64,000 nt of DNA. It comes from Octopus vulgaris. Lineage: Eukaryota. The translations under genes were made by a program, and so were the position numbers. Each line of letters starts with the position of its first letter. Position 1 is the first letter of the stretch. Below the pieces are notes generated by a model. That model was not told the origin of the DNA, ran no database searches, and worked only from the letters and a program-made list of their open reading frames with translations. Location: contig OX597820.1 in the NCBI GenBank assembly GCA_951406725.2, positions 121,458,001-121,522,000 on the forward strand. Direction: 5' to 3'. Shown here one piece after another: positions 1,131 through 62,811 of the stretch.

Positions 1131-1204
1131 TAGCCAGATAACCGAAGAGATGGTGTTGTGGATTTCCACTTCGGCATCTGAAACTCAGAGTTTTATCTTG
1201 ACTA
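1131..1204 (+). ncRNA. Type I hammerhead ribozyme-like motif (variant core) in the Penelope 3' repeat
   Basis: Stem I AGATAA/TTATCT; core CCGAAGA (1142-1148; canonical CUGANGA); stem II GATG..GTGG-ATTT-CCAC..CATC; GAAA 1180-1183; palindromic stem III ACTC-A-GAGT; GUU cleavage triplet. Deviations are U4>C and an extra U before GAAA. Confidence 0.6.
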
Positions 1205-4474: not shown

Positions 4475-6473
4475 TTACCTGGTGCCAAACACTCCCAGCT
4501 TCCTGGCTACAGGCTTCCATCTTCTCATGAATCTGCCTCGTGACAGGTACCTTTTCTCCAGTCTGATCTTATTACTGAGGTGGTAACTAATAAAGTTAAC
4601 AACCCCTGGCCGGATATAAAGGTACCCGACACTATGCCTCTCACACGCGTCTTCCATATTGTTTCCTTCAGTATGGCTACTACGAAGAAAAAGCAAGCCT
4701 TCCTTTCCCTGTTAAGGGCAGGAGGCGGCACAATCTCGATGATAGATTCAGCTGATAGCTGTACTCTTCCCATCGATGACGACAGTTTGCTCTGCGAAAA
4801 CTATCAGTCTCGTTAATTCCGGACACTCCACAAATGCGTGCAAGACGGTTTCCCTGTCCTGCCCGCACCTCGGACATGTCGGCGAAACGGCAGTTCCATG
4901 CCTTGACAGTTTATCACGAACAGGTAACGCCGGACGGAAGCACTGCCGAGCCAGGGATTTCTGGTAATTTTCCAGATACCCCGACCCGAAATTTCTCCGG
5001 AACAGGTTGATTAACTGATTTTCATCGTAGCCCAGGGTCCCCCCAAGGAGTCTTCGGAATTAACCGCCACTAACCCACTATAGAAATCCGCGGTGGAACT
5101 CTTGTTGCCGGCATTGCCTGCCCGAGAGAGTAGCTGAAGTGCCTGGCGGCACTCCAACTGCCGGTCCCCGACCCTATGTTTCTGATTGATCCAATTACCA
5201 TCTCTGCACCCCTCATGTTTGGCTTTTAGGTGACGGTCCAAGGCCGTTCTCGCTGCCAAAATGTGAGATGCAGAGCCCAACCTCAACGCCTCCTCTTGGT
5301 CCTTAACTAGTTGCCCTTCTATTCTGGCCTTATCTAGTTTTAACTGACGGCTAAACCTAATAGACTCAAAACGAATGGCTCTCTTCAAGGCGAACCACCA
5401 TCTGTTATTAACCACCGTGCCGATTAACGCCCTCTGTGCTAAATACTGAATCCGGCTACGGTATGCCACGCAAGTCAAAATAGACTTGTTCAGCTTCCAG
5501 TAGCCGAACCCTCTCTTAACTGTACTATCTATGTCCAGTCTACACTTAACCATTCTATGGTCAGTGTATGCTACTTGGACAAGCTGTGGACAGCTAAAAC
5601 TAGACTTATCTCCAGTTCTTATCACTATCCTATCTAAATAGAACTTGAACCTTCCGTCGCCACTCATCCCGGTCCAATCTGGGACGTTCGGATGGCCAAG
5701 TCTGTAATGATCTGCCAGCTGAAACCGCTTGAGCAGATCCCCGAGACGTGAGTTTACTTTCCTATAGACCGAGCCAACGCTATCGATGCGCACATCAACA
5801 ATAGCGTATAGTCACCTAACACCACTAATGTCTTCGACGTCATGAGAAAGTTCTCTAGGCGTCGATAAAAATCAGTTTGAAATCCTCTAGCAGAAGGTGC
5901 ATAGATCCCCATCAACCTGAAGGCCTTACTGCTGTATGTCACATCAAGGACGACCAGCCCACCTTTTGGGTCTACATAGACTGTACTTGTCTGCAGAGCC
6001 AAGCCTTTTCGAACCTATTTCTTTATTACCCACATGGGGCTAAACACAGTGAGGACAAACAAGGATAGACATAGGTATTAAGTCGATTACATCGACCCCA
6101 GTGCGTAACTGGTACTTAATTTATCGACCCCGAAAGGATGAAAGGCAAAGTCGACCTCGGCGGAATTTGAACTCACAACGTAACGCAGACGAAATACCGC
6201 TAAGCATTTCGCCCGGCGTGCTAACGTTTCTGCCAGCTCGCCGCCTTTTCGAACCGGTACTACTACACCCGCTCGCCCTCCGGTCCGGCTTGGAGATATG
6301 ATTTTCTCATAGTCATTGAGGAGGGGCGAGAAGGCTCGTAGACTGTCCAGCTTGGTCTCTGTAGCAACCATCACACGCATATCGTGTGATCTGAGGTCGT
6401 CGAAGAAACAAGCTTGCTTCCACTTCGGGCTCAGACCACGCACATTCAAACACCCAAGTTTAAGTGCAGTCAT
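4475..6473 (-). pseudogene. LINE ORF2 relic (APE endonuclease joined to C-terminal region; no RT)
   Basis: ORF pieces 6087-6473, 5754-6002, 5011-5793, 4475-4877. After ..AKHEGC (~5205) the translation jumps to C-terminal-type sequence with no RT motifs. Confidence 0.8.
6016..6242 (-). mobile_element. tRNA-derived SINE, family B, inserted in LINE ORF2
   Basis: Perfect 13-bp TSD GGTTCGAAAAGGC (6003-6015 and 6243-6255). Removing it restores ..VPVRKG-LALQTS... Has B-box GAGTTCAAATTCC and central GTCGACTTTGCCTTTCATCCTTTCGGGGTCGATAAA. Confidence 0.9.
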
Positions 6474-13080: not shown

Positions 13081-13112
<32 letters not shown>

Positions 13113-13353
13113 GATTGAGGGGACAAACGAAAGAAGCGCATTCAACAAATTTTATTGGAGTTTACATGTATGGATCAAAACAGTTTGATTCAAATTCGCT
13201 GGTACTCTTGAGTTTCAAGCATGATGCTACTCGTTAGCTATTTTGAATTATACATACATGAATATATACATATATATTCGCCTATGCCTTGTATATACGT
13301 ACCCAGATAAAAAAGCATATGTTTTGCAACATTTAGAATTCAATAAGTTGGGC

Positions 13354-20964: not shown

Positions 20965-21900
20965 TCAACAATAATGTGTTTGACCACCACCTTCCTGAAT
21001 TACTTCAAAGACACGCGATTCCATGCTCCCAACCAACTTCTGCAGGAGATCACGTGGAAGCTCTTCCCAGGCCTTCTTTATTACCGTTTCAAGTCCGGCA
21101 ACAGATGAATACTGCTTGTCTTCGCTGTACGCAACGTTCATGAGATAATCCCCAGGCATTCTCTGTAGGATTAAGGTCGGGACTTCTTGTTGGCCATGGC
21201 ATGACTTCAACCCTAATATAGGAAATACAAAGTTGCCTTTATGAAAAGGAGAGTTGTCCTGCTGAAATATGAACTTATCGCCATGGAGACTTCTTCCTTC
21301 TTCGTCACTGTGAGCCCTGTCCAACATATCGATGTATTGAGCAGCATTGAAACGGCCATCAGTGATGACAAGTGGCAGCTTCTCATTGGCAGATCTTGCT
21401 CTCCACACCATAAGACCTTCTCCGCAGTTCTGTCACTTGGAATAAGTAGAATTTTGCACGCATTTATCTGCCCAATAATACTTATAACCGTCGGGCCATC
21501 CAAATTCCATTTTTCCTCATCAGGAAACAGAACCCAGGTCCGTTCACCATCCCACGCCAGATGCAGCCGAACAAACTCCCATCTAACACCTTTGTGGGAA
21601 AAGAATAATAACGGTCATCCTAGCCACTTCTTCAGGTGGAAACCATGGTTCAGAATAACTCGTCTTTCGGTGGTCCCCTGCTGATGCCTAACAGAAGAGC
21701 AGTGTGACTTCTTCGCAACTCTGACAATAGCCCTTTCATCCCATTCTGATGTAGCCTTGGGTTGTCTGCCAGCATGAACCCTGTTTGTTATCCAGTGGCG
21801 GTCTGCTTCACCGAACCTTCCTGGCAATCATCCAGTTACTCATGCCTTCCGCTTTCAGTACAAGAATCTTCCTTTACTTAATTTCGGAAAACTTTGTAGC
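20965..21900 (-). pseudogene. Tc1/Tc3-like DD34E transposase relic
   Basis: Frame-shifted pieces: GRQPKATSEWDERAIVR, PDEEKWNLDGP, MVW..GRFNAAQYIDML, FIFQQDNSPFH, RSPDLNPTENAWG, KKAWEELP..LVGSMESRVFEVIQEGGGQTHY. TIRs not confidently found. Confidence 0.85.
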
Positions 21901-35286: not shown

Positions 35287-35640
35287 TTTTCTCTCTTTTA
35301 CTTGTTTCAGTCATTTGACTGCGGCCATGCTGGAGCACCGCCTTCAGTCGAGCAAATCGACCTCGGGGACTTATTCTTTGTAAGCCTTATTCTGTCGGTC
35401 TCTTTTTGCCGAACCGCTAAGTTACGGTGACGTAAACACACCAGCATCGGTTGTCAAGCAATGCTAGGGGGACAAACACAGACACACAAACACACACACG
35501 CATACATATATGTATATACATATATACGACAGGCTTCTTTCAGTTTCCGTTTACCAAATCCACTCACAAGGCAGTGGGACTGAACCCGGAACCATGTGGT
35601 TGGTTAGCAAGCTACTTACCACACGGCCACTCCTACGCCT
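35287..35640 (-). mobile_element. SINE family A with internal deletion
   Basis: Jumps from CACTCACAAGG directly to CAGTGGGACTG. Confidence 0.9.
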
Positions 35641-35699
35641 ATGTATACATATACATACAAACATTTATATATTTACAAGCATTTATATAATATATAAAT

Positions 35700-35914: not shown

Positions 35915-38524
35915 CATACAGTTTTCTGTGCTTTTCAACTGTTCTTCAGTTTACAATCGTTGTTTTCGAAATATATTGTAATGCAAGATCGAAGTTGTGC
36001 GTAAAAATCAATACAATATTCAATATCCGCTGATGCGACACACCACATGGTTCTGCCGTAAACTTCAACACACGCTCGCACGCACACACACACACACACA
36101 CACATGCGCGCACTCACTCGCGCACAGACACACACCTTTGTCTACATCCACCTGCCTATAATATTGATTACGATGAGCTGCCTACTGCAACAGAGCTCTG
36201 CTAAAGGAATACGTTACTTTGTAACCTAACCTGCTAAAAATAGCAGCCAAATATTCTTCAAATCACACCTTATTTTATTAAAAAGGAAAAAAAACTTTCG
36301 AGAATGTAGACTAATACCGAAAGATTATTTTTTTTTTCTTTTTGTATTAAGACTACATTTTTTTATATAAAGAAGATTGACCTTAGAAGTTAATAAAAGT
36401 TATTAACCTGCAGGAGAATTACTATTATTTTGTATTAAGGCCTTCAAATGTTCATACAGTTTAGGGAGAGCGAGAAAAACTATTTAATCAAATGGCAGTT
36501 ATATGACTTCTATTAATCTTGGGAGTATTGATTTGCGGAGAGAATACCAGGAACCTATAAATATAACTTACAATCGAAAGGGACACAATGAACACCGGAA
36601 GTAATTTTGTAGAATTTCTATAATGCTTTCTTTTATCTGCCACAATAGCACACACACGTAGACAGGTAAATACACCCCCCCCACACACACACGGAGACAG
36701 ATAAATACACCCCCACACACACACAAATGCACACACATGCACACACTTTCTCTAAAATACATACACATATAACCAAAGTAACAAACATAAAAACATCAAA
36801 ATTTTAATAACAATTAAAATAATACTGATATCTATTTGAAATCTATTTTGGAGGCAGTGTTATGTTTGATTCTTTCGCTTAAAGAACTTGAAAGTACTTG
36901 ATCGACCCCACGAATCGATGAAAAATAAAGTTGAACCAGACAGTATTTGAACTCTTTACGTAAAGTTTACAGTTCGCAGGGCCATAAAGCATTTTCTACG
37001 ATGCGCTACCAATACTATCTACACACACACACACAGGCACAATGACAAACCGAAACATGTGTGAATTTCAGGTTTTCAAGTGGGAAAACTATTTTTGATA
37101 ATCTTTAACGGAGAAAAGGTAACAGCAAGTTGGCCGACAATGGAAGAACGAGGAGATATCGTTGGTTCAACAGTGAAGAGCTCCTTTAGAAAGGAAATGT
37201 GTTACCAAAGAAAAATACCCTTATGAAGACAAATAAATGAGCCAACGAGAGCCTTTCTATTTAACTGGTCCATTTGATAGATGTTCCATCTAAAATTCCC
37301 TCAAGAAAGGGCGGCAGAAGCGTTTTATGACAGTGAAAGACGCAGTTCTAAATACACTGTTTTTTTTTTAATAAAGACACGCGCGATAGTCCCATATTGA
37401 ACTCATTAGGCGCTAGGTCTGTTCAATAAGGATATTTGACCTGTGGCTATATACAAACAACAACAACGACAGCAATGTGAAAGGAAGATTTTAAAAAGAG
37501 ATGCCCCCCACCACCTCAAAAGTGAAGGATATCGAAGGTAAGTCGATCGATTTGTAATTTTGATTTGAAATCTATCTTATTGAAAAAAATTAAATTGAAT
37601 TTTCAATTCAACGTTCTGATAAAATTATTGCTTCTTTTTAAGTTGGTGTTGATAATTATTTTACTACTATTTAGGGAGGAAAACAAAATAATTTTAAGTT
37701 CATTTACACAGCAAAACGTAGGCGCACACACAGACACACACACACATATGCACAAGACATCTTAAAAAAGAATGGAGAATTGAACATCTGAAAAAAGTTT
37801 TGAAAATGTTTGATTCTGCATTCTTCTTTATAACGTGTTGGTTCCATAATCTGTCTGCTGTATAAAATGCATTGACGCGAACTCAGGATTTGCCTGTCAA
37901 CTAAAATTCTACGTAATTGCTTATCTTAAGCAATTCTGTATGTTCCCTATTGTTCGGTATGGTTAGCCTGATCTGGATTATATCAGAGTGCTAATAAGGT
38001 ACCTGCCCAGATTCAAAATTCCTCTTCCTTTACACACACACACACAAATATGATGGCAATCAGTATGAGGATGAGAATTGCACATTAATGAGACAGAAAA
38101 GGGAGATGAAATCTTAGCTCAGCTGATGGCTAACAGCTTCTTTTACCAAAACTGTTACAACTATGTCTCCTCTCAGTTAAACGAAATACAAATCCTGTTC
38201 GTAGAAATGAGTCTTATGAGTCGACCAATCGAATAGTGACAGTCATTTCATGATTTCGAGTAGCGATGTTCTGTGATTAGATTTGGTTCCGTTGAGGTCA
38301 GCTTCAGAATAACATTCCTTTGCAAGTTAAAAACATGACGGGTTACCACAACTTGCATTTCGACTCCATGATGTTTATTGAATGCAATTGTCTTGAAAAT
38401 GCTTTGAAGCATTGACTATGTTTTCTTCTCTAAAATGTCCATTCAATTGTATTTGCCGGCAAAAATCTACATAAGTGGTTCTTCTCAACTGGGGTCCAAA
38501 CATTTGGTAAATCACAGAAGATAT

Positions 38525-38934
38525 TTTACTCTTTTACTTGTTTCAGTCATTTGACTATGGCCATGCTGGAGCACCGCCTTTAGTCGAGCAAATCGACCTC
38601 GGGACTTATTCTTTGTAAGCCTAGTACTTATTCTATCGGTCTCTTTTTGCCGAACCGCTAAGTTACGGGGACGTAAACACACCAGCAATAGTTGTCAAGC
38701 AATGTTGGGGGAACAAACACAGACGCACAAACGTATACACACACACATACATATATATGTATACATATATACGACGGGCTTCTTTCAGTTTCCGTCTACC
38801 AATCCACTCACAAGGCTTTGGTCGGCCCGAGGCTATAGTAGAAGACACTTGCCCAAGGTGCCACTAAGTAGGACTGAACCCAGAACCATGTGGTTAGTAA
38901 GCATGCTACTTACCACAGAACCACTCCTACACCT
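38525..38934 (-). mobile_element. SINE family A, full length, possibly nested in an old hAT-like MITE (~38474-39103)
   Basis: Colinear with A copies; flanks show AGTGGTTCTTCTCAACTGGGGTCC and GAGGACCACTG. Confidence 0.85.
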
Positions 38935-39255
38935 ACGAGCAATAAATGGGTTATATTTCTACAACACAATATTTTGACAATTAGTTTTAAACAATACGTA
39001 ATTATAATCGAATTATAAAATACGATAGGATGTTTCTAAACATCGAAATGTTTTGAGGATTCCGTCGAATAAAAGAGGAACCAAAAACGGATGAGGACCA
39101 CTGGTCCGCATCAGTGACTCATTTCTCAGGTGAGATTTAATCTATTTGTATTATCTTACCTTTGACTTTTTAGAGACGTCTCTTCCCTAGAACAAGATAT
39201 ATGTGAGTTAGGGAGTGCGCGCGTGCGTATTTAATTGCAGTTTGACTATGCAGTC

Positions 39256-39305
39256 CATGACTTAAAGTTTCGTGGGTGCGTAGAACACGTCCATCTCATC
39301 AGATG
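39256..39305 (-). ncRNA. Type I hammerhead ribozyme motif, minus strand
   Basis: Minus strand: CAT-CTGATGA-GATGGACGTGTTCTACGCACCCAC-GAAA-CTTTAA-GTC-ATG. Intact core, palindromic stem III, stem I only 3 bp. Confidence 0.6.
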
Positions 39306-39337
39306 CTAGGAACATCTGCTGTCGGATCAGATGCGCC

Positions 39338-39393
39338 CCGTATCTGATGAGGTGAACGTGTTCTGCGCAGCCACGAAACTTTAAGTCATGTGG
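39338..39393 (+). ncRNA. Type I hammerhead ribozyme motif, plus strand
   Basis: CCGTAT-CTGATGA(39344-50)-GGTGAACGTGTTCTGCGCAGCCAC-GAAA(39375-78)-CTTTAA-GTC(39385-87)-ATGTGG. Six-bp stem I with two G.U pairs; stem III ACTT-T-AAGT. Confidence 0.72.
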
Positions 39394-39499
39394 AAAATAG
39401 TCAGACTATTATAAAAGTATATGTAACTCTTACCAGATGTTTTGGGTACTCATTATCATCAAGTTCTCTAAATTGCTGAAGCCGGTCATTAAGGTGTCA

Positions 39500-40030
39500 T
39501 TCTAGACGCTTTTATAGTCAGTCATTGCTCTGGTCTCTGTTTTCAGTCATGCGCAACAGGGGTGAGGTATTCTGACCTGCCCGATCCTCGATATTGTCAG
39601 GACAGGATTTTCTTTGTCTGCATTTATTTCGCCCTCATTCCACTGTGTCCGGAAACATGGTTGTGGATGGGTGAGTTGTGGCGAGGTATGTGAGCATGCC
39701 GGGCAAGCTTTCGACATTTTACCTGCGGAAGGAACGGTTCCTCTCAGCCAGAGTATTTACTGACTTTGTGCTTCACAAACCTGTTCGTTTTGTGCTCCGT
39801 GTACGTGATGCGTAACAGCCTTCTGAGGCACTTCAGCTCCAGTTCTTCCTTCAATATCAACTATAAGAGTTTTCAGACCCATACAACTGGATCGAAGTCA
39901 TCAGAGACTTTTAAACTTTGAGTCTCACTGAAAAACTAATAGAGCTGCTTTTCCATATGGTGTTCAGCTTCATCAGTGCAGCAGGGACCAAAATGAGTTT
40001 TTGAGATAACTTCTTACGAGATTTGTGTCC
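39500..40030 (-). mobile_element. RTE-clade LINE 3' relic
   Basis: Minus-strand translation ELKCLRRLLRITYTEHKTNRFVK and TVE*GRNKCRQRKSCPDNIED, typical of the RTE post-RT region. Confidence 0.7.
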
Positions 40031-40066
40031 TTGGTCATAGTGCCACGTTAGATTTATATATATAGC

Positions 40067-40101
<35 letters not shown>

Positions 40102-40197
40102 GGAGAGTAAGTAAATAAGTAAATGAGTGGAAATTGTACCGGAGAGTGTGTTAAATTATAAGGCACTGAAAGAGAATGACTCTTCCCAGACACAACA

Positions 40198-40234
<37 letters not shown>

Positions 40235-40263
40235 GAGAGAGAGAGAGAGAGAGAGAAATAAAG

Positions 40264-40332
<69 letters not shown>

Positions 40333-40672
40333 CGAAAAATATTCACCAGATAAACATATACGTACAAGGATATAGAGAGACACAAATATATTCTTATATG
40401 GAGCATAAAAACACAGAATACTAATGAAAGAATGCATAGCTTTTAAGTTCGACAACTCGTTGTGGAAACCCGGAATTACGTTATAATGGTAATGTCTATA
40501 ATAAACAGATGGCATATGCGCAAACTCAGTAAATAAATATTACCTTTGCTAATTATGAACATTACTATTATTACGTAAGTCTGAGTTTCCAGAAACAGCT
40601 GGCGGATTAGAAAGCTATGCATACTCTCCTGGGCATTATGCATTTTTAAATACTCTGTGTAAATTTATTTGT

Positions 40673-40708
<36 letters not shown>

Positions 40709-41054
40709 ACAAATATATATGAAAATTATGTATTAATGGAAAACGTCTATAAATGGCTGATGATTGCTCAACATTTTAAAACTGTTGTAATACTTACAAT
40801 ATTTAATAAAATGATGTAGCGTTAAACGATCGTATCAAATTACCGGAGATATTCTTGCTGCTTATTTTGATTATAATCACCCCAGGGATTTATATGGATA
40901 ACACCATACAAAATCCTGGTGCATCTAACTTAAGAACCATATTCATTTGAATCTAAACTTTGCTGAACTTATATATATATATATATGAATATGCATATCC
41001 ATGTACATATGTATTTAATTTCTGAATATTTGTGGTTATATGTATGTATGTATG

Positions 41055-41090
<36 letters not shown>

Positions 41091-41240
41091 TTTCTTTCTC
41101 TGTTGTATATAGATATAATGGATACATCGAAACCGGTTATACTATAAATAATACTCTGTAACAAAAGAAAAAAATCCAACATTTTCTAAAATACAGTTCT
41201 ATGCCTTTTCCAATTTTTTTTTTCTTGATCATCATATATA

Positions 41241-41278
41241 CTAGCAGAAAAACCGCCCTCTGCGCGGTTTTCTGCTAG
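41241..41278. mobile_element. Helitron-like terminus (CTAG-bounded hairpin)
   Basis: A|CTAGCAGAAAAACCGCCCTCTGCGCGGTTTTCTGCTAG: GC-rich hairpin next to CTAG in an AT context. Confidence 0.45.
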
Positions 41279-42721
41279 CCCCTTGATAATATTTTCCCAT
41301 TTGATACCCATTTCTAATAATTTTATGATATTCTACGTTTAATTATTTCTTCACATAATAGTGCTGACTTGCTTAGTAAATATTGCTTTGATTATTTTAT
41401 CACAGTCACAATTTCTCTTTTTTAATCAAACATCACGGTAGTCCAAAAACAGAGGGAGTTTGTCAAGTGTTACCGTCTCCTCAAATCAAGATAGATATTT
41501 GAAATCAGCAGCTCATCTGTAAGATTTGCAGTGTATGTGTGTGTGTGTGTGTGTGAGACAGAGAGAGACAGACAGATAGACAGACAGACAGACAGAGAGA
41601 AAGTGTGGGGAGGGAACATTGCAAACAATGATTGAAATAAACATGAAATGAAAAAATCGTATAAGTAAAAAGGCATTACTAAAGATGTATATCCCACTGA
41701 CTTTGTTGCCTCATTACATCCAGAAAAATGGATACTTTTTAACAAAAGTCTTCTGCTAATACCGCTCAGATGTTGTGGTTTCAGAGTATTTAGGGATTTA
41801 TGGGAAAGGATTTTTTCTGAGGGGGTGGAGAAAAGAGTTTCAGAAAATTCACATGATCTGACTTTTTCCCCTCATTACTTTCAGGAAGATGGGTATCTTT
41901 TAATGAAAATTTATACAAATCCTTTTCAAACGGCATAGATTACGATTATAAAGAAATTTATGGGAAAATTTTTTTCACGAATTTTCCCCATTTTTTAAAC
42001 GACAGAGTTGGAAATGATTGGGCTCGGTGGGGGTCATCTTTGTATGAAAAATGTTTCGAAGACTCTTCTTTTTTAAATACCCCGCTCCCTTATCATCCCA
42101 CTCTGAACCCATTCGGGCCAATTTTTTTTGCACTTCAAAACCATGAGAAGAGCATTTTCGGTAAGTTTTTTTTTAAATTGTTAATATTTTCAGAGGGATT
42201 AGGCTGTTGTTTCTAGCACATCAAAAGACAACCCTCTTCGTTTCTTTAGCACTCTCCCATGTATTGATGTCTTTCAATATTTCTTCCCCATAAATATATT
42301 TATATACTATAAAAGAGAAAATTTGATAATTTATCTTAGTCTCTCACGAAAATAATTTGGACAGAATATTTGTGCCAGATATCAACGCATTGTATGTAAC
42401 ATTCTCAAAGTTGCTAAATTTCCAATAGTTTCTCAATTCTCTTCATTCCGTTGGTTCCGTTCTCCCTGAAACTGTAAGAGACTCTTTCATTTTGCCACGA
42501 AATTTAGATGCGTCAAATCTTTGTCAAGCTACAATAGAAGCTGTCAAAACTATTGTATTTCATGCGATCAAAGTCACCATTGTGTGCCACTACCTGAGCC
42601 AGGTGAGAAGACGTCTTCATCTCACACTTTGCAGAGATGCCATTTCGGTTCAATAAACCCTTACAAGAATTCTGTGACAAACAGTAAATTTCAAGGACGC
42701 TCTATGAAGGTCGTTCTTGGT

Positions 42722-58125: not shown

Positions 58126-59421
58126 TAGTTTTATTTTTATTTTTATAGCGTGCTTTCACTTCACTACCGAGCGCAGCTCTGTGTGCCTTGGGTATGTGCT
58201 GTGATTTGTTGTGATGCTCTGATGGTTATTGTATGGAAAGTGTTCTGCGTAGGATGTGTGCAGTGCCTAGTAGTGCAATTTTCTGTATGTTATATGTGTT
58301 TGTAAGTCCTGGTGTTTTTGTTATGTATTTGTCTGAATATTTTTTTATCATGCCTAATGCACCTACTATGATAGGAATTGTTTCTGTTTTCAGGTTCCAC
58401 ATTCTAGTTACCTCTATTTCCAGGTCTTTGTATTTTGAGAGTTTCTCCATTTCTTTTAGAGACACGTTGTCATCTGCCGGTACTGATACATCAATTAGAA
58501 AGCATTTTTTTCTTCATGGTCTCTGACAACTATATCTGGTCTGTTGGCCTTAATTTCTCTATCTGTGTGTATCGGCATATCCCAGAGTATGGTTGCTTTC
58601 TCGTTTTCTGTGACCTTTTCTGGTGTGTGCCTATACCATCTTTTTTCTGTTGTTATTCCATAATGTTGGCATAGCTTCCAATGTATGTAAGTTCCAACTC
58701 TGTCATGTCTGTGAATATATTCCTTCTTAGCCAGGACTGGGCAGCTAGAGATAATATGATTTATTGTTTCTTGTCCATCTCCACATATTCTGCAGTTACT
58801 TGTAATATTTCTTTTCATTACATGTTTTTGGTAATTTCTGGTGGGGAGGCTTTGGTCTTGCGCTGCAATTAAAAATCCCTCTGTTTCTGCTTTGAGTCCT
58901 GAGCTTCTCAACCATTGCTGGGATTTTTCTTTGTCTATTTCTTTTGCGTTTAGTTTAGTCCAGTATTTACCATGAAGGGGCTTTTCTTGCCATCGTTTTA
59001 TCATGGTTCGTTGCTGTTCTATTTTTAGTTTGGATTTCATTTTTTTATAGCTTTTGTTGTTTCTTCATCTTCTTCTTCTTCTTCTTCATGTTTATTAGGT
59101 GGTATGATTTCTTGTTTGTATTTGTCAGCTTCCTTAAATACTGAGAACAGTTTTTTGTTTTGCTCGTGTTTTGCCGCTATCTGGATCAGTTTTCCTTCCT
59201 TCTGAAGTAGATATTTTTGCAGTCCTATGGTGGTTATTTTATAGTAGTTTTCCAGCTGTATAAGGCCTCTACCACCTTCTATACGTTGTATATATAGTCT
59301 TTCTATGTCAGATTTTGGGTGATGCATCCTAGATCCTATCATTATTTTTCTTGTTTTCCTGTCTATTTTGGTCAGTTCATTTCGTGTCCAGTTAAGGATA
59401 TTGTAGCTGTAACTGGGACAG
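58122..59421 (-). mobile_element. R4/Dong-clade element, family 1, 1.3-kb 5'-truncated copy in (TAA)n
   Basis: HHPKSDIERLY..R..GGRGL, WQEKPLHG, ETEGFLIAAQDQ, CRICG..ETINHIISSC (CCHC), RHD, RPD..D..K; two single-base frameshifts. Confidence 0.93.
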
Positions 59422-59506
<85 letters not shown>

Positions 59507-59507
<1 letters not shown>

Positions 59508-60188
59508 GTAGTTTTATTTTTATAGCGTGCTTTCACTTCACTACCGAGCGCAGCTCTGTGTGCCTTGGGTATGTGCTGTGATTTGTTGTGATGCTCTGAT
59601 GGTTATTGTATGGAAAGTGTTCTGCGTAGGATGTGTGCAGTGCCTAGTAGTGCAATTTTCTGTATGTTATATGTGTTTGTAAGTCCTGGTGTTTTTGTTA
59701 TGTATTTGTCTGAATATTTTTTTATCATGCCTAATGCACCTACTATGATAGGAATTGTTTCTGTTTTCAGGTTCCACATTCTAGTTACCTCTATTTCCAG
59801 GTCTTTGTATTTTAAGAGTTTCTCCATTTCTTTTAGAGACACGTTGTCATCTGCCGGTATTGATACATCAATTAGAAAGCATTTTTTTCTTCATGATCTC
59901 TGACAACTATATCTGGTCTGTTGGCCTTAATTTCTCTATCTGTGTGTATCGGCATATCCCAGAGTATGGTTGCTTTCTCGTTTTCTGTGACCTTTTCTGG
60001 TGTGTGCCTATACCATCTTTTTTCTGTTGTTATTCCATAATGTTGGCAAAGCTTCCAATGTATGTAGGTTCCAACTCTGTCATGTCTGTGAATATATTCC
60101 TTCTTAGCCAGGACTGGGCAGCTAGAGATAATATGATTTATTGTTTCTTGTCCATCTCCACATATTCTGCAGTTACTTGTAATATTTC

Positions 60189-60192
<4 letters not shown>
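59507..60192 (-). mobile_element. R4/Dong-clade element, family 1, 0.7-kb copy in (TAA)n
   Basis: Near-identical to 58122-58815. Confidence 0.93.
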
Positions 60193-60286
<94 letters not shown>

Positions 60287-60563
60287 GAGTGAGAGAGCAT
60301 TCCATGTCACCAAAGTGACACTGGGTTAAAAGATACGAAAACCCAGTATACCTATCGTGACTACCCGTTTGATAAGGGTGCGGCAGGCATCACAACCATA
60401 TGTGCGCGACATGATGATCTCATATCAAGATAAACAGCGCATGACCTTGCAGGTGGGGGCTCAGTTAGAGTTTTATTCGTGTTGAGTCGCCATGTTCCCA
60501 AAGATAAGTTATCCAAACCCTAAAAAATTCTTCTTTGATGCTCCCCGGCTACTTCTGCTCGCG

Positions 60564-61415: not shown

Positions 61416-62811
61416 TGTTTGACTTTTGCTTTACATTTGTACAAGTTGGCTCCAAGTCTCACCCAGAGACCTCAAGAGACAACAAGTTGGAAGTTCATGT
61501 TGTTGTTATGCCTATGTTGCCATATATTTAGTTTTGTACTTAGTGTTGTACTAGTGAATGCCTAAAGAACCATACGAAAATTATGTTTGTTTTAAAACTT
61601 GAGATTACATAGAAAGTATTTTGCGCAGGATATGAGCAGTTCCCATGAGCACTATCTTTTGAATTTCTGCCATTTTGGAGTTTCCTGGTATCTGAGTTAA
61701 GTAGCAATCAGCCCCTTTTGCTATCATTCCCTATGACAACAGGTATTGTTTTAGTCTTCAGGTTCCACATTTTGCTAATTTCTATTTCAAGATCTTTATA
61801 CTTGCTCAGTTTTTGGTAGGTCTTGACAGATACGTTTATATCGATTGGGACAGTCATATCAATGAGGAGGCATGTTCTTTGTCTGAAGTCTTTCAATATG
61901 ATGTCTGGCCTATTTCCACCTATCTTTCTATCAGTTTGTATGGTAAAGCTCCAGAGGAGTGAGATGTGGTCATTTTCAAGCACTGGAGGTGGTTTGTGTT
62001 CCCACCAGGTTTTTTTCATGGGGCATTTCCAGGTTTTTTGCAAATTACCTAGTGAATATATTCTGCAGCTCTATCATGCCTGTTGAGATACTCTGTAGGC
62101 GTAAGAAAACTGCACTTGGAGACAACATGATCAATGGTTTCATTTTGTTGTTGACATACACGACATGTTGGGCTACTACCGTTCTTTAATATGTTGGCCT
62201 GGTAGTTCCTTATAGGTAAGCATTGATCTTGAGCTGTTATGATAAACCCTTTTGTTTAAGATTTTAAGCCAGAGGCCATTAGCCATTGATGGATCAGGGC
62301 TTTGTCAACATCTGCATTATTCGCTCTCTTTGGATATTTGCCATTGAGAGGTTTTTCTTGCCATTTATCATTCAGAATATCTAAGGCAGCAGTTTTAGCA
62401 CGGGTTTTCATGCGCCTAGCTTTTTCTATGCTTGTTTCTTGTATGTCTAAATCCGAAATTTGTTGTATTCGGAATTCACTTAGATATTCCTTAACCTGTT
62501 TTGTTACTGAGTATGATGCTTTCTTGTTTTCACGTTTTGAGACAAGTTTTAACATCCAGTCCTCAGAGTTTTTCAGGTAGGTGTCTAGGCCAATTGTAGC
62601 AATCTTCATTGTTATTGCCAGTTGTAACAGTCCACGGCCTCCCTCTTTTCTTGGCAGATAGAGTCGTTCTATATCTGCCTTAGGGTGGTGCATTCTATGC
62701 ATTGTCAACAGTTTTCGTATTTTTCTGTCAAGATTACATATTTCAGTAATTGACCAGTTAACGATATTGAGGCTGTAAGTCACGACTGGTATGGCTAAAG
62801 CATTGATCGCT
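61414..62811 (-). mobile_element. R4/Dong-clade element, family 2, 5'-truncated, in (TAA)n
   Basis: AINALAIPVVTYS..HHPKADIERLYLPRKEGGRGL..WQEKPLNG; RPDIIL..LIDMTVP..KLSKYKDL. Distinct 3' UTR and clearly diverged from family 1. Confidence 0.92.

Follow-up and report, generated by a model that had tools for sequence, protein, structure and literature searches.

The locus at 39256-39393 of the window (the whole 64,000-nt stretch of Octopus vulgaris DNA that was analysed) is very probably composed of two head-to-head, 5'-truncated 3' ends of a Hydra-clade Penelope-like element (PLE), each with the hammerhead ribozyme of the element's pLTR; they likely stem from one old insertion and are likely inert. 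The locus itself matters little, but it adds a Hydra-clade family that is apparently uncatalogued (Repbase or Dfam may already hold it). It also carries a warning: Penelope insertions in animal DNA routinely create paired hammerheads on both strands, a feature that is used as a sign of viroid-like RNAs.

Both arms were placed on a family model by nhmmer, with a profile from 16 family copies. In model coordinates, 0 is C3 of CUGAUGA and the cut follows +43. The features of the locus are:

39228..39314, minus strand: left arm, 5'-truncated PLE 3' end, model -13 to +73 (nhmmer E 4e-21); it starts some 13 nt upstream of the core and stops at the short 3' end of the family.
39244..39255: small palindrome-like patch (GACT...AGTC) that in the left arm takes the place of the 3' strand of the family's stem I (sequence against family alignment).
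39259..39302, minus strand: left hammerhead (direct reading, constrained fold), cut predicted after 39259; CUGAUGA 39302-39296, stem II region 39295-39272, GAAA 39271-39268, palindromic stem III 39268-39260.
39312..39340: junction filler, in which the element's own stem I/core start is partly copied twice more (39312-39320 on plus, 39326-39334 on minus).
39344..39387, plus strand: right hammerhead (direct reading, constrained fold), cut predicted after 39387; CUGAUGA 39344-39350, stem II region 39351-39374, GAAA 39375-39378, stem III 39378-39386.
39341..39450, plus strand: right arm, 5'-truncated PLE 3' end running into the "tail" extension, model -4 to +104 (nhmmer E 2e-22).

Through direct reading, we confirmed that 45 of 49 positions are reverse-complementary between the two arms (39256-39304 and 39342-39390), which enclose a 37-nt spacer holding CATCTG (39313-39318) and CAGATG (39328-39333), as an earlier note on this DNA had described. 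Read outward, both arms give CUGAUGA, a 24-nt stem II region, GAAA, ACUUUAAGU and GUC, and the CUGANGA and GAAA boxes, the NUH site and the G10.1-C11.1 pair are present in each. The hammerhead motifs are confirmed, a type I core on each strand, as had been claimed; stem I, which the note did not list, is short in the constrained fold (3 bp in the left arm, 6 bp including two G-U pairs in the right). The cut positions expected earlier, after 39387 on the plus strand and after 39259 on the minus strand, are correctly placed as predictions. The four differences between the arms (39276/39370, 39281/39365, 39291/39355 and 39294/39352) do all fall within the stem II region, as the note said, but this region makes up 24 of the 49 arm positions, so their clustering is only a 0.05 event. 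Beyond the arms the two sides are again complementary (78% over 89 nt), and the true inverted repeat is therefore longer than had been stated. The two cores are 42 nt apart and the junction measures 41 nt.

Constrained three-helix folds form in both arms at 7-9 kcal/mol above the lowest fold, and the family majority behaves likewise. The covariance-model check proposed earlier was run as an Rfam scan of 37000-42000 at E ≤ 1, in which 23 matches included no hammerhead; our call of the motif is based on the direct reading and on the published description of minimal hammerheads. In folding, the filler copies form an inner hairpin that can mask the CUGA of each arm. The patch at 39244..39255 probably arose by a template switch.

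The arms belong to a dispersed repeat family. In the genome (2.8 Gb, 227 contigs), a search with 39230-39420 scored 40 of 116 candidates and yielded 68 matches, almost all of them to a single arm; no junction was shared, and among these matches the inverted pair did not recur as the unit with defined ends that the earlier note had envisaged. The tight pattern of the family core matched exactly at 45 places in the genome, its reversed control at 0, so the motif is not a chance one, and the window pair is the sole adjacent pair among these strict matches. Copies extend upstream of the core by variable lengths; downstream they end near +72 to +82 or near +130, often with a microsatellite next to them. 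Among arms chosen regardless of core, the strict core was intact in 2 of 31 and in 5 of 22, 45 of the 53 being broken, and CpG decay at C11.1-G12 is common across the family. Core columns showed 43 changes in 290 against 382 in 1594 for their neighbours, and 23 in 200 against 136 in 529 in a second set; for A residues, the conservation of core and neighbours was not different. The better-kept core positions fit selection in the source elements, which does not thereby disprove later selection. Among the papers retrieved on octopus and the hammerhead ribozyme, only Craig et al. 2021 (PMC8557442) was relevant, and a text search of its supplement, weak because it was combined with a second missing term, did not find the family's stem III motif.

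Upstream walking from the copies reached remnants of endonuclease- and RT-type reading frames. With a better-kept sister copy as query, 309 relatives were found at E ≤ 0.001 among 678 candidates, many of about 700 aa; the best relative carries Pfam GIY-YIG, and in the Atlas set this domain occurs in 11% of members, which we take as a lead. By tblastn, 32 relatives of about 700 aa matched upstream of the hammerhead and on its strand at hammerhead-bearing loci (L046/L059, L048, L050, L061 and L066). An RT followed by a C-terminal GIY-YIG-type endonuclease was found on the hammerhead's strand in L087, L108, L066 and L050, and in L087 the RT and endonuclease remnants (E 1.5e-36) are flanked by two outward-facing hammerhead 3' ends. 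L108 (G000:C10:34037000-34043500, 4707-1935, minus strand) is a near full-length but broken copy of a related subfamily, with a repeat-ORF-repeat (pLTR-ORF-pLTR) layout of about 2.8 kb and a hammerhead region in both repeats. Its 5' repeat holds a hammerhead with intact core and the tail, the ORF follows with a probable start about 190 nt downstream of the hammerhead, and the 3' repeat ends near the short end; profile matches around the ORF cover model -145..+136 and -327..+95. The window fragments do not themselves reach the ORF, and their link to it is the shared 3'-end sequence.

Against the Penelope-like reading, Pfam recognised none of 16 genomic ORF fragments, giving GIY-YIG only on full-length relatives, and the eleven top endonuclease matches come from a sister family whose 3' end is different; these were left out of the window family. 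A protein search with the L066 endonuclease fragment scored 0 of 110 candidates. Elements of the Hydra clade are described as having a CxCX5C linker and an N-terminal RWK, as lacking CCHH, and as carrying CxxC and CxH around E and N and DKT instead of DKG (PMC8557442). The CxCX5C linker and CxH are readable in L087, and CxxC in L074 and sister copies, where no cysteine pair was seen before the YIG-like motif. L104 has a readable DKT, which is decayed in L108, and RWK is readable in no genomic copy examined. All 32 full-length relatives contain a loose version of the CxCX5C/CxxC/CxH motifs as well as DK[TS], and 23 of the 32 contain RWK. Judged by motifs and element layout, the family features match the Hydra clade.

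This clade, including Hydra-1_Obim (Craig et al. 2021, PMC8557442), shares with our family a short (<3 kb) single-ORF element with C-terminal endonuclease, the CxCX5C linker, a terminal-repeat hammerhead, inverted truncated copies and a one-sided tail. The hammerhead of Hydra-1_oBim (PMC8557442 File S2), in contrast, has another core, stem II and stem III, so the window family is a different one; its tail is about 60 nt, against 30-40 in the clade (PMC8557442), all window-family copies seen being broken. The metazoan PLE minimal hammerheads (Cervera and de la Pena 2014, PMC4209133) resemble ours in the type I core, the long stem II bulged near its 5' end, the short stem I, the palindromic stem III and the many single decayed copies. 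The window family was not among the families met in PMC4209133.

Head-to-head (divergent) pairs were found at 38 of 96 family loci and tail-to-tail (convergent) pairs at none (binomial P 7e-12). By set, they occurred at 17 of 29 hammerhead-selected, 7 of 24 upstream-selected, 4 of 14 endonuclease-selected and 10 of 29 tail-selected loci, that is at 21 of 67 in the sets selected without the hammerhead; 8 duplicate loci were dropped from the count, the sister-family loci L076-L086 were excluded, and L088 had been hand-picked as a visible pair. Core-to-core distances run continuously from about 2 to about 1,900 nt, and the junctions differ at every pair. In 14 of 18 pairs the tail extension is present on one arm only, with one arm ending at or before +82 and the other reaching at least +129 (the family model stops at about +147); the window fits this asymmetry, its left arm ending at +73 and its right arm reaching at least +104. 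An inverted 5'-truncated copy with a one-sided tail is standard in Penelope-like elements (PMC8557442), and dual minimal hammerheads lying close together on opposite strands have been published, although at 100-700 bp rather than the 42 nt from core to core in the window (PMC4209133). The inverted arrangement is a regular product of the family, of a kind already described. The earlier reading of the locus as an inverted Penelope pLTR junction was borne out in this, but the pair is not a single chance remnant.

A younger and different hammerhead family provides a near-perfect head-to-head pair at L091 (G000:C2:4106336-4106450), whose arms differ at 3 of 47 positions and form a hairpin of more than 100 bp that continues into TA/CA repeats; it is a better twin-hammerhead assay case than the window. 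At L023, short hammerhead fragments (1492-1555 and 1812-1875) form a direct pair about 320 nt apart.

A Penelope-type enzyme is reported to nick and extend both DNA strands, with two internal RT start sites bounding the tail and uncleaved RNA as the main template (PMC11167929). We infer a stepwise model in which the element's enzyme would nick both DNA strands, and each nick would prime one cDNA at either internal start site on uncleaved element RNA, usually one cDNA from each site. Both cDNAs would stop early, and their truncated ends would be joined with some template jumping, giving the filler; the extra copies of the stem I/core start in the junction suggest such jumps. Two nicks, early stops and end joining would explain why the pairs face one way only, why their tails are asymmetric and why their junctions vary. 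In the window both cDNAs may have stopped just beyond the hammerhead, which would place the cores 42 nt apart.

Hammerhead-cut RNA was rejected as the template, because the 29 tail-selected loci showed no peak of 5' ends at +44 (the nearest were at +39 and +49). In 14 of these 29 copies (L113-L141), the 5' ends lie between -22 and +17, around the hammerhead start, which may reflect an RT pause site or an effect of the profile boundary. The strict head-to-head pairs, the one-arm tail and the absence of an end pile-up at the cleavage site fit priming on both strands with uncleaved RNA, and the family data are modestly useful for the Penelope mechanism. Poseidon PAc of Anolis (Frangieh et al. 2024, PMC11167929) is alike in its two alternative 3' ends (tail), in a pLTR hammerhead just before the ORF and in the lack of a copy-end pile-up at the cleavage site; unlike our family, it belongs to another clade, and its ORF starts inside the hammerhead, whereas the probable start in L108 is about 190 nt downstream of it.

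The arms of the window are unusually alike. Their hammerhead columns differ at 4 of 47, whereas 17 other pairs differ at 205 of 726 (28%; P 9e-4, after a further pair was dropped for sharing fewer than 20 columns). In the outer flanks of the window pair, 11 of 26 positions differ (Fisher P 0.002 against the hammerhead). Likeness restricted to the hammerhead, together with two intact cores, speaks for a pair of the same origin that selection has preserved as a host element, self-cleaving in both directions or forming dsRNA, a reading we regard as improbable. The locus is present in three related DNA-like runs of about 3% divergence, in two of them in one piece. These runs lend the host element some further weight, as the arms contain only 1 of 40 variable sites where 3.6 would be expected, and all three carry the family's C at 39341, strengthening the right-arm stem I. 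The trend is, however, not significant (P 0.11), the left stem I is damaged, and the inner hairpin is broken at 39332 in run X2, by one of 5 variable sites in the spacer (1.4 expected, P 0.011). Moreover, hairpins formed by the filler mask CUGA even when a transcript contains a single arm and the 22 nt upstream of it (penalties of 10.5 and 16.5 kcal/mol), and no host exon is evident among the window ORFs of at least 150 aa.

Under assumed pair numbers, one pair this alike has a probability of 0.24 among 300 pairs and 0.60 among 1,000, which also counts against a host element; the genome holds 502 tail candidates. Only a well-kept pair could have been noticed, and ascertainment among many pairs could be the source of the extreme likeness. 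Local gene conversion or selection is possible as well, and four of the left-flank differences, which form one palindrome-like patch, may be a single event. We rejected a general homogenisation of arms by short spacers, since the 17 pairs showed no trend of likeness with spacing (rho -0.04). A more specific domestication, with both cores selected across related species as a two-way self-cleaving terminator that is turned off via the read-through hairpin, is slightly less probable again; if true, a domesticated pair would be a rare host-adopted ribozyme switch.

For the preferred reading as a pair of truncated Penelope ends, little present activity would be expected. For the read-through RNA, the predicted hairpin is 67-72 kcal/mol lower than the hammerhead fold; the self-masking described in the earlier note is real in folding, but it follows from any inverted duplication. 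The dimeric hammerhead was not the lowest fold of the cofolded pair of arms, and thermodynamic folding cannot decide activity. Metazoan minimal hammerheads are described as showing no cleavage as monomers and low cleavage as dimers (PMC4209133). The ribozyme would have been selected in the source element, in which the palindromic stem III would let copies in direct repeat pair with each other; in the inverted pair the ribozyme would be without a same-strand partner and locked in the hairpin. With one hammerhead per strand, no same-strand dimer could form and no unit-length monomer would be released. The note's alternative of a small ambisense ribozyme element with a conformational switch is not supported for this reason, and also because the junctions differ everywhere and most cores are broken.

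The note had further proposed A39355 as an ADAR site, an idea that is weak. An A-C mismatch does exist there, with A39355 facing C39291, but the family has G at this position, so the A is a later change. Moreover, the A is preceded by a 5' G, which is found at only 6,922 of 87,574 squid editing sites (PMC4384741), and the bias against 5' G is also stated in PMC11334849. From one presumed-RNA run, a single 32-nt paralogous piece was recovered.

A non-autonomous fold-back or ambisense element moving as a 135-nt unit is very unlikely. Five loci, the window and four others, match the twin-core pattern with a junction of at most 60 nt, as such a unit would lead one to expect. The junctions of the four are nevertheless 17, 23 and 25 nt in the window family and 45 nt in another, younger family, and differ mutually and from the 41 nt of the window. 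No match outside the window covers its junction with both arms (the alignment of one other pair does span it, at 66%), and core spacing in the family is continuous up to about 1.9 kb.

Hammerheads of opposite polarity that face each other are a viroid-like geometry. Non-LTR retrozymes, avsunviroids and viroid-like RNAs share it with the window, as well as the type I hammerhead and the palindromic stem III; unlike them, the window shows no tandem monomers, no defined unit and no evidence of a circle. Least probable of all is a DNA copy of a viroid-like circular RNA or an animal retrozyme, since the locus, for all its facing hammerheads on both polarities, contains two inverted fragments and no head-to-tail units, retrozymes are tandem repeats by definition (10.64898/2026.07.22.740005), and in other copies the arms adjoin a Penelope-type 3' UTR and ORF without a break.

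The window contains several other repeats. Another Hydra-type element, with RT end and endonuclease, was found at 3-941 on the plus strand (tblastn E 4e-54; 224-aa open frame 267-941), followed at 1143-1192 (plus) by a decayed hammerhead resembling the L091 family. At 13099-13250 on the minus strand there is a sister-family 3' end (as in L079, L081 and L085), which has a tail of the same kind and a hammerhead-like motif in decay; its part 13099-13197, considered as a fragment starting at the cleavage site, was rejected when it turned out to be of this sister family. Two copies of a common dispersed repeat, 87-94% alike and presumably SINE-like, are located at 35288-35641 and 38524-38935. The open frames at 5011-5811, 20965-21432, 58495-59513, 59785-60288 and 62256-62810 may be other transposon remnants (endonuclease, transposase and non-LTR RT end). 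A second inverted repeat was found at 40406-40517 and 40537-40648, with arms of 112 nt that are 72% complementary around a 19-nt loop.
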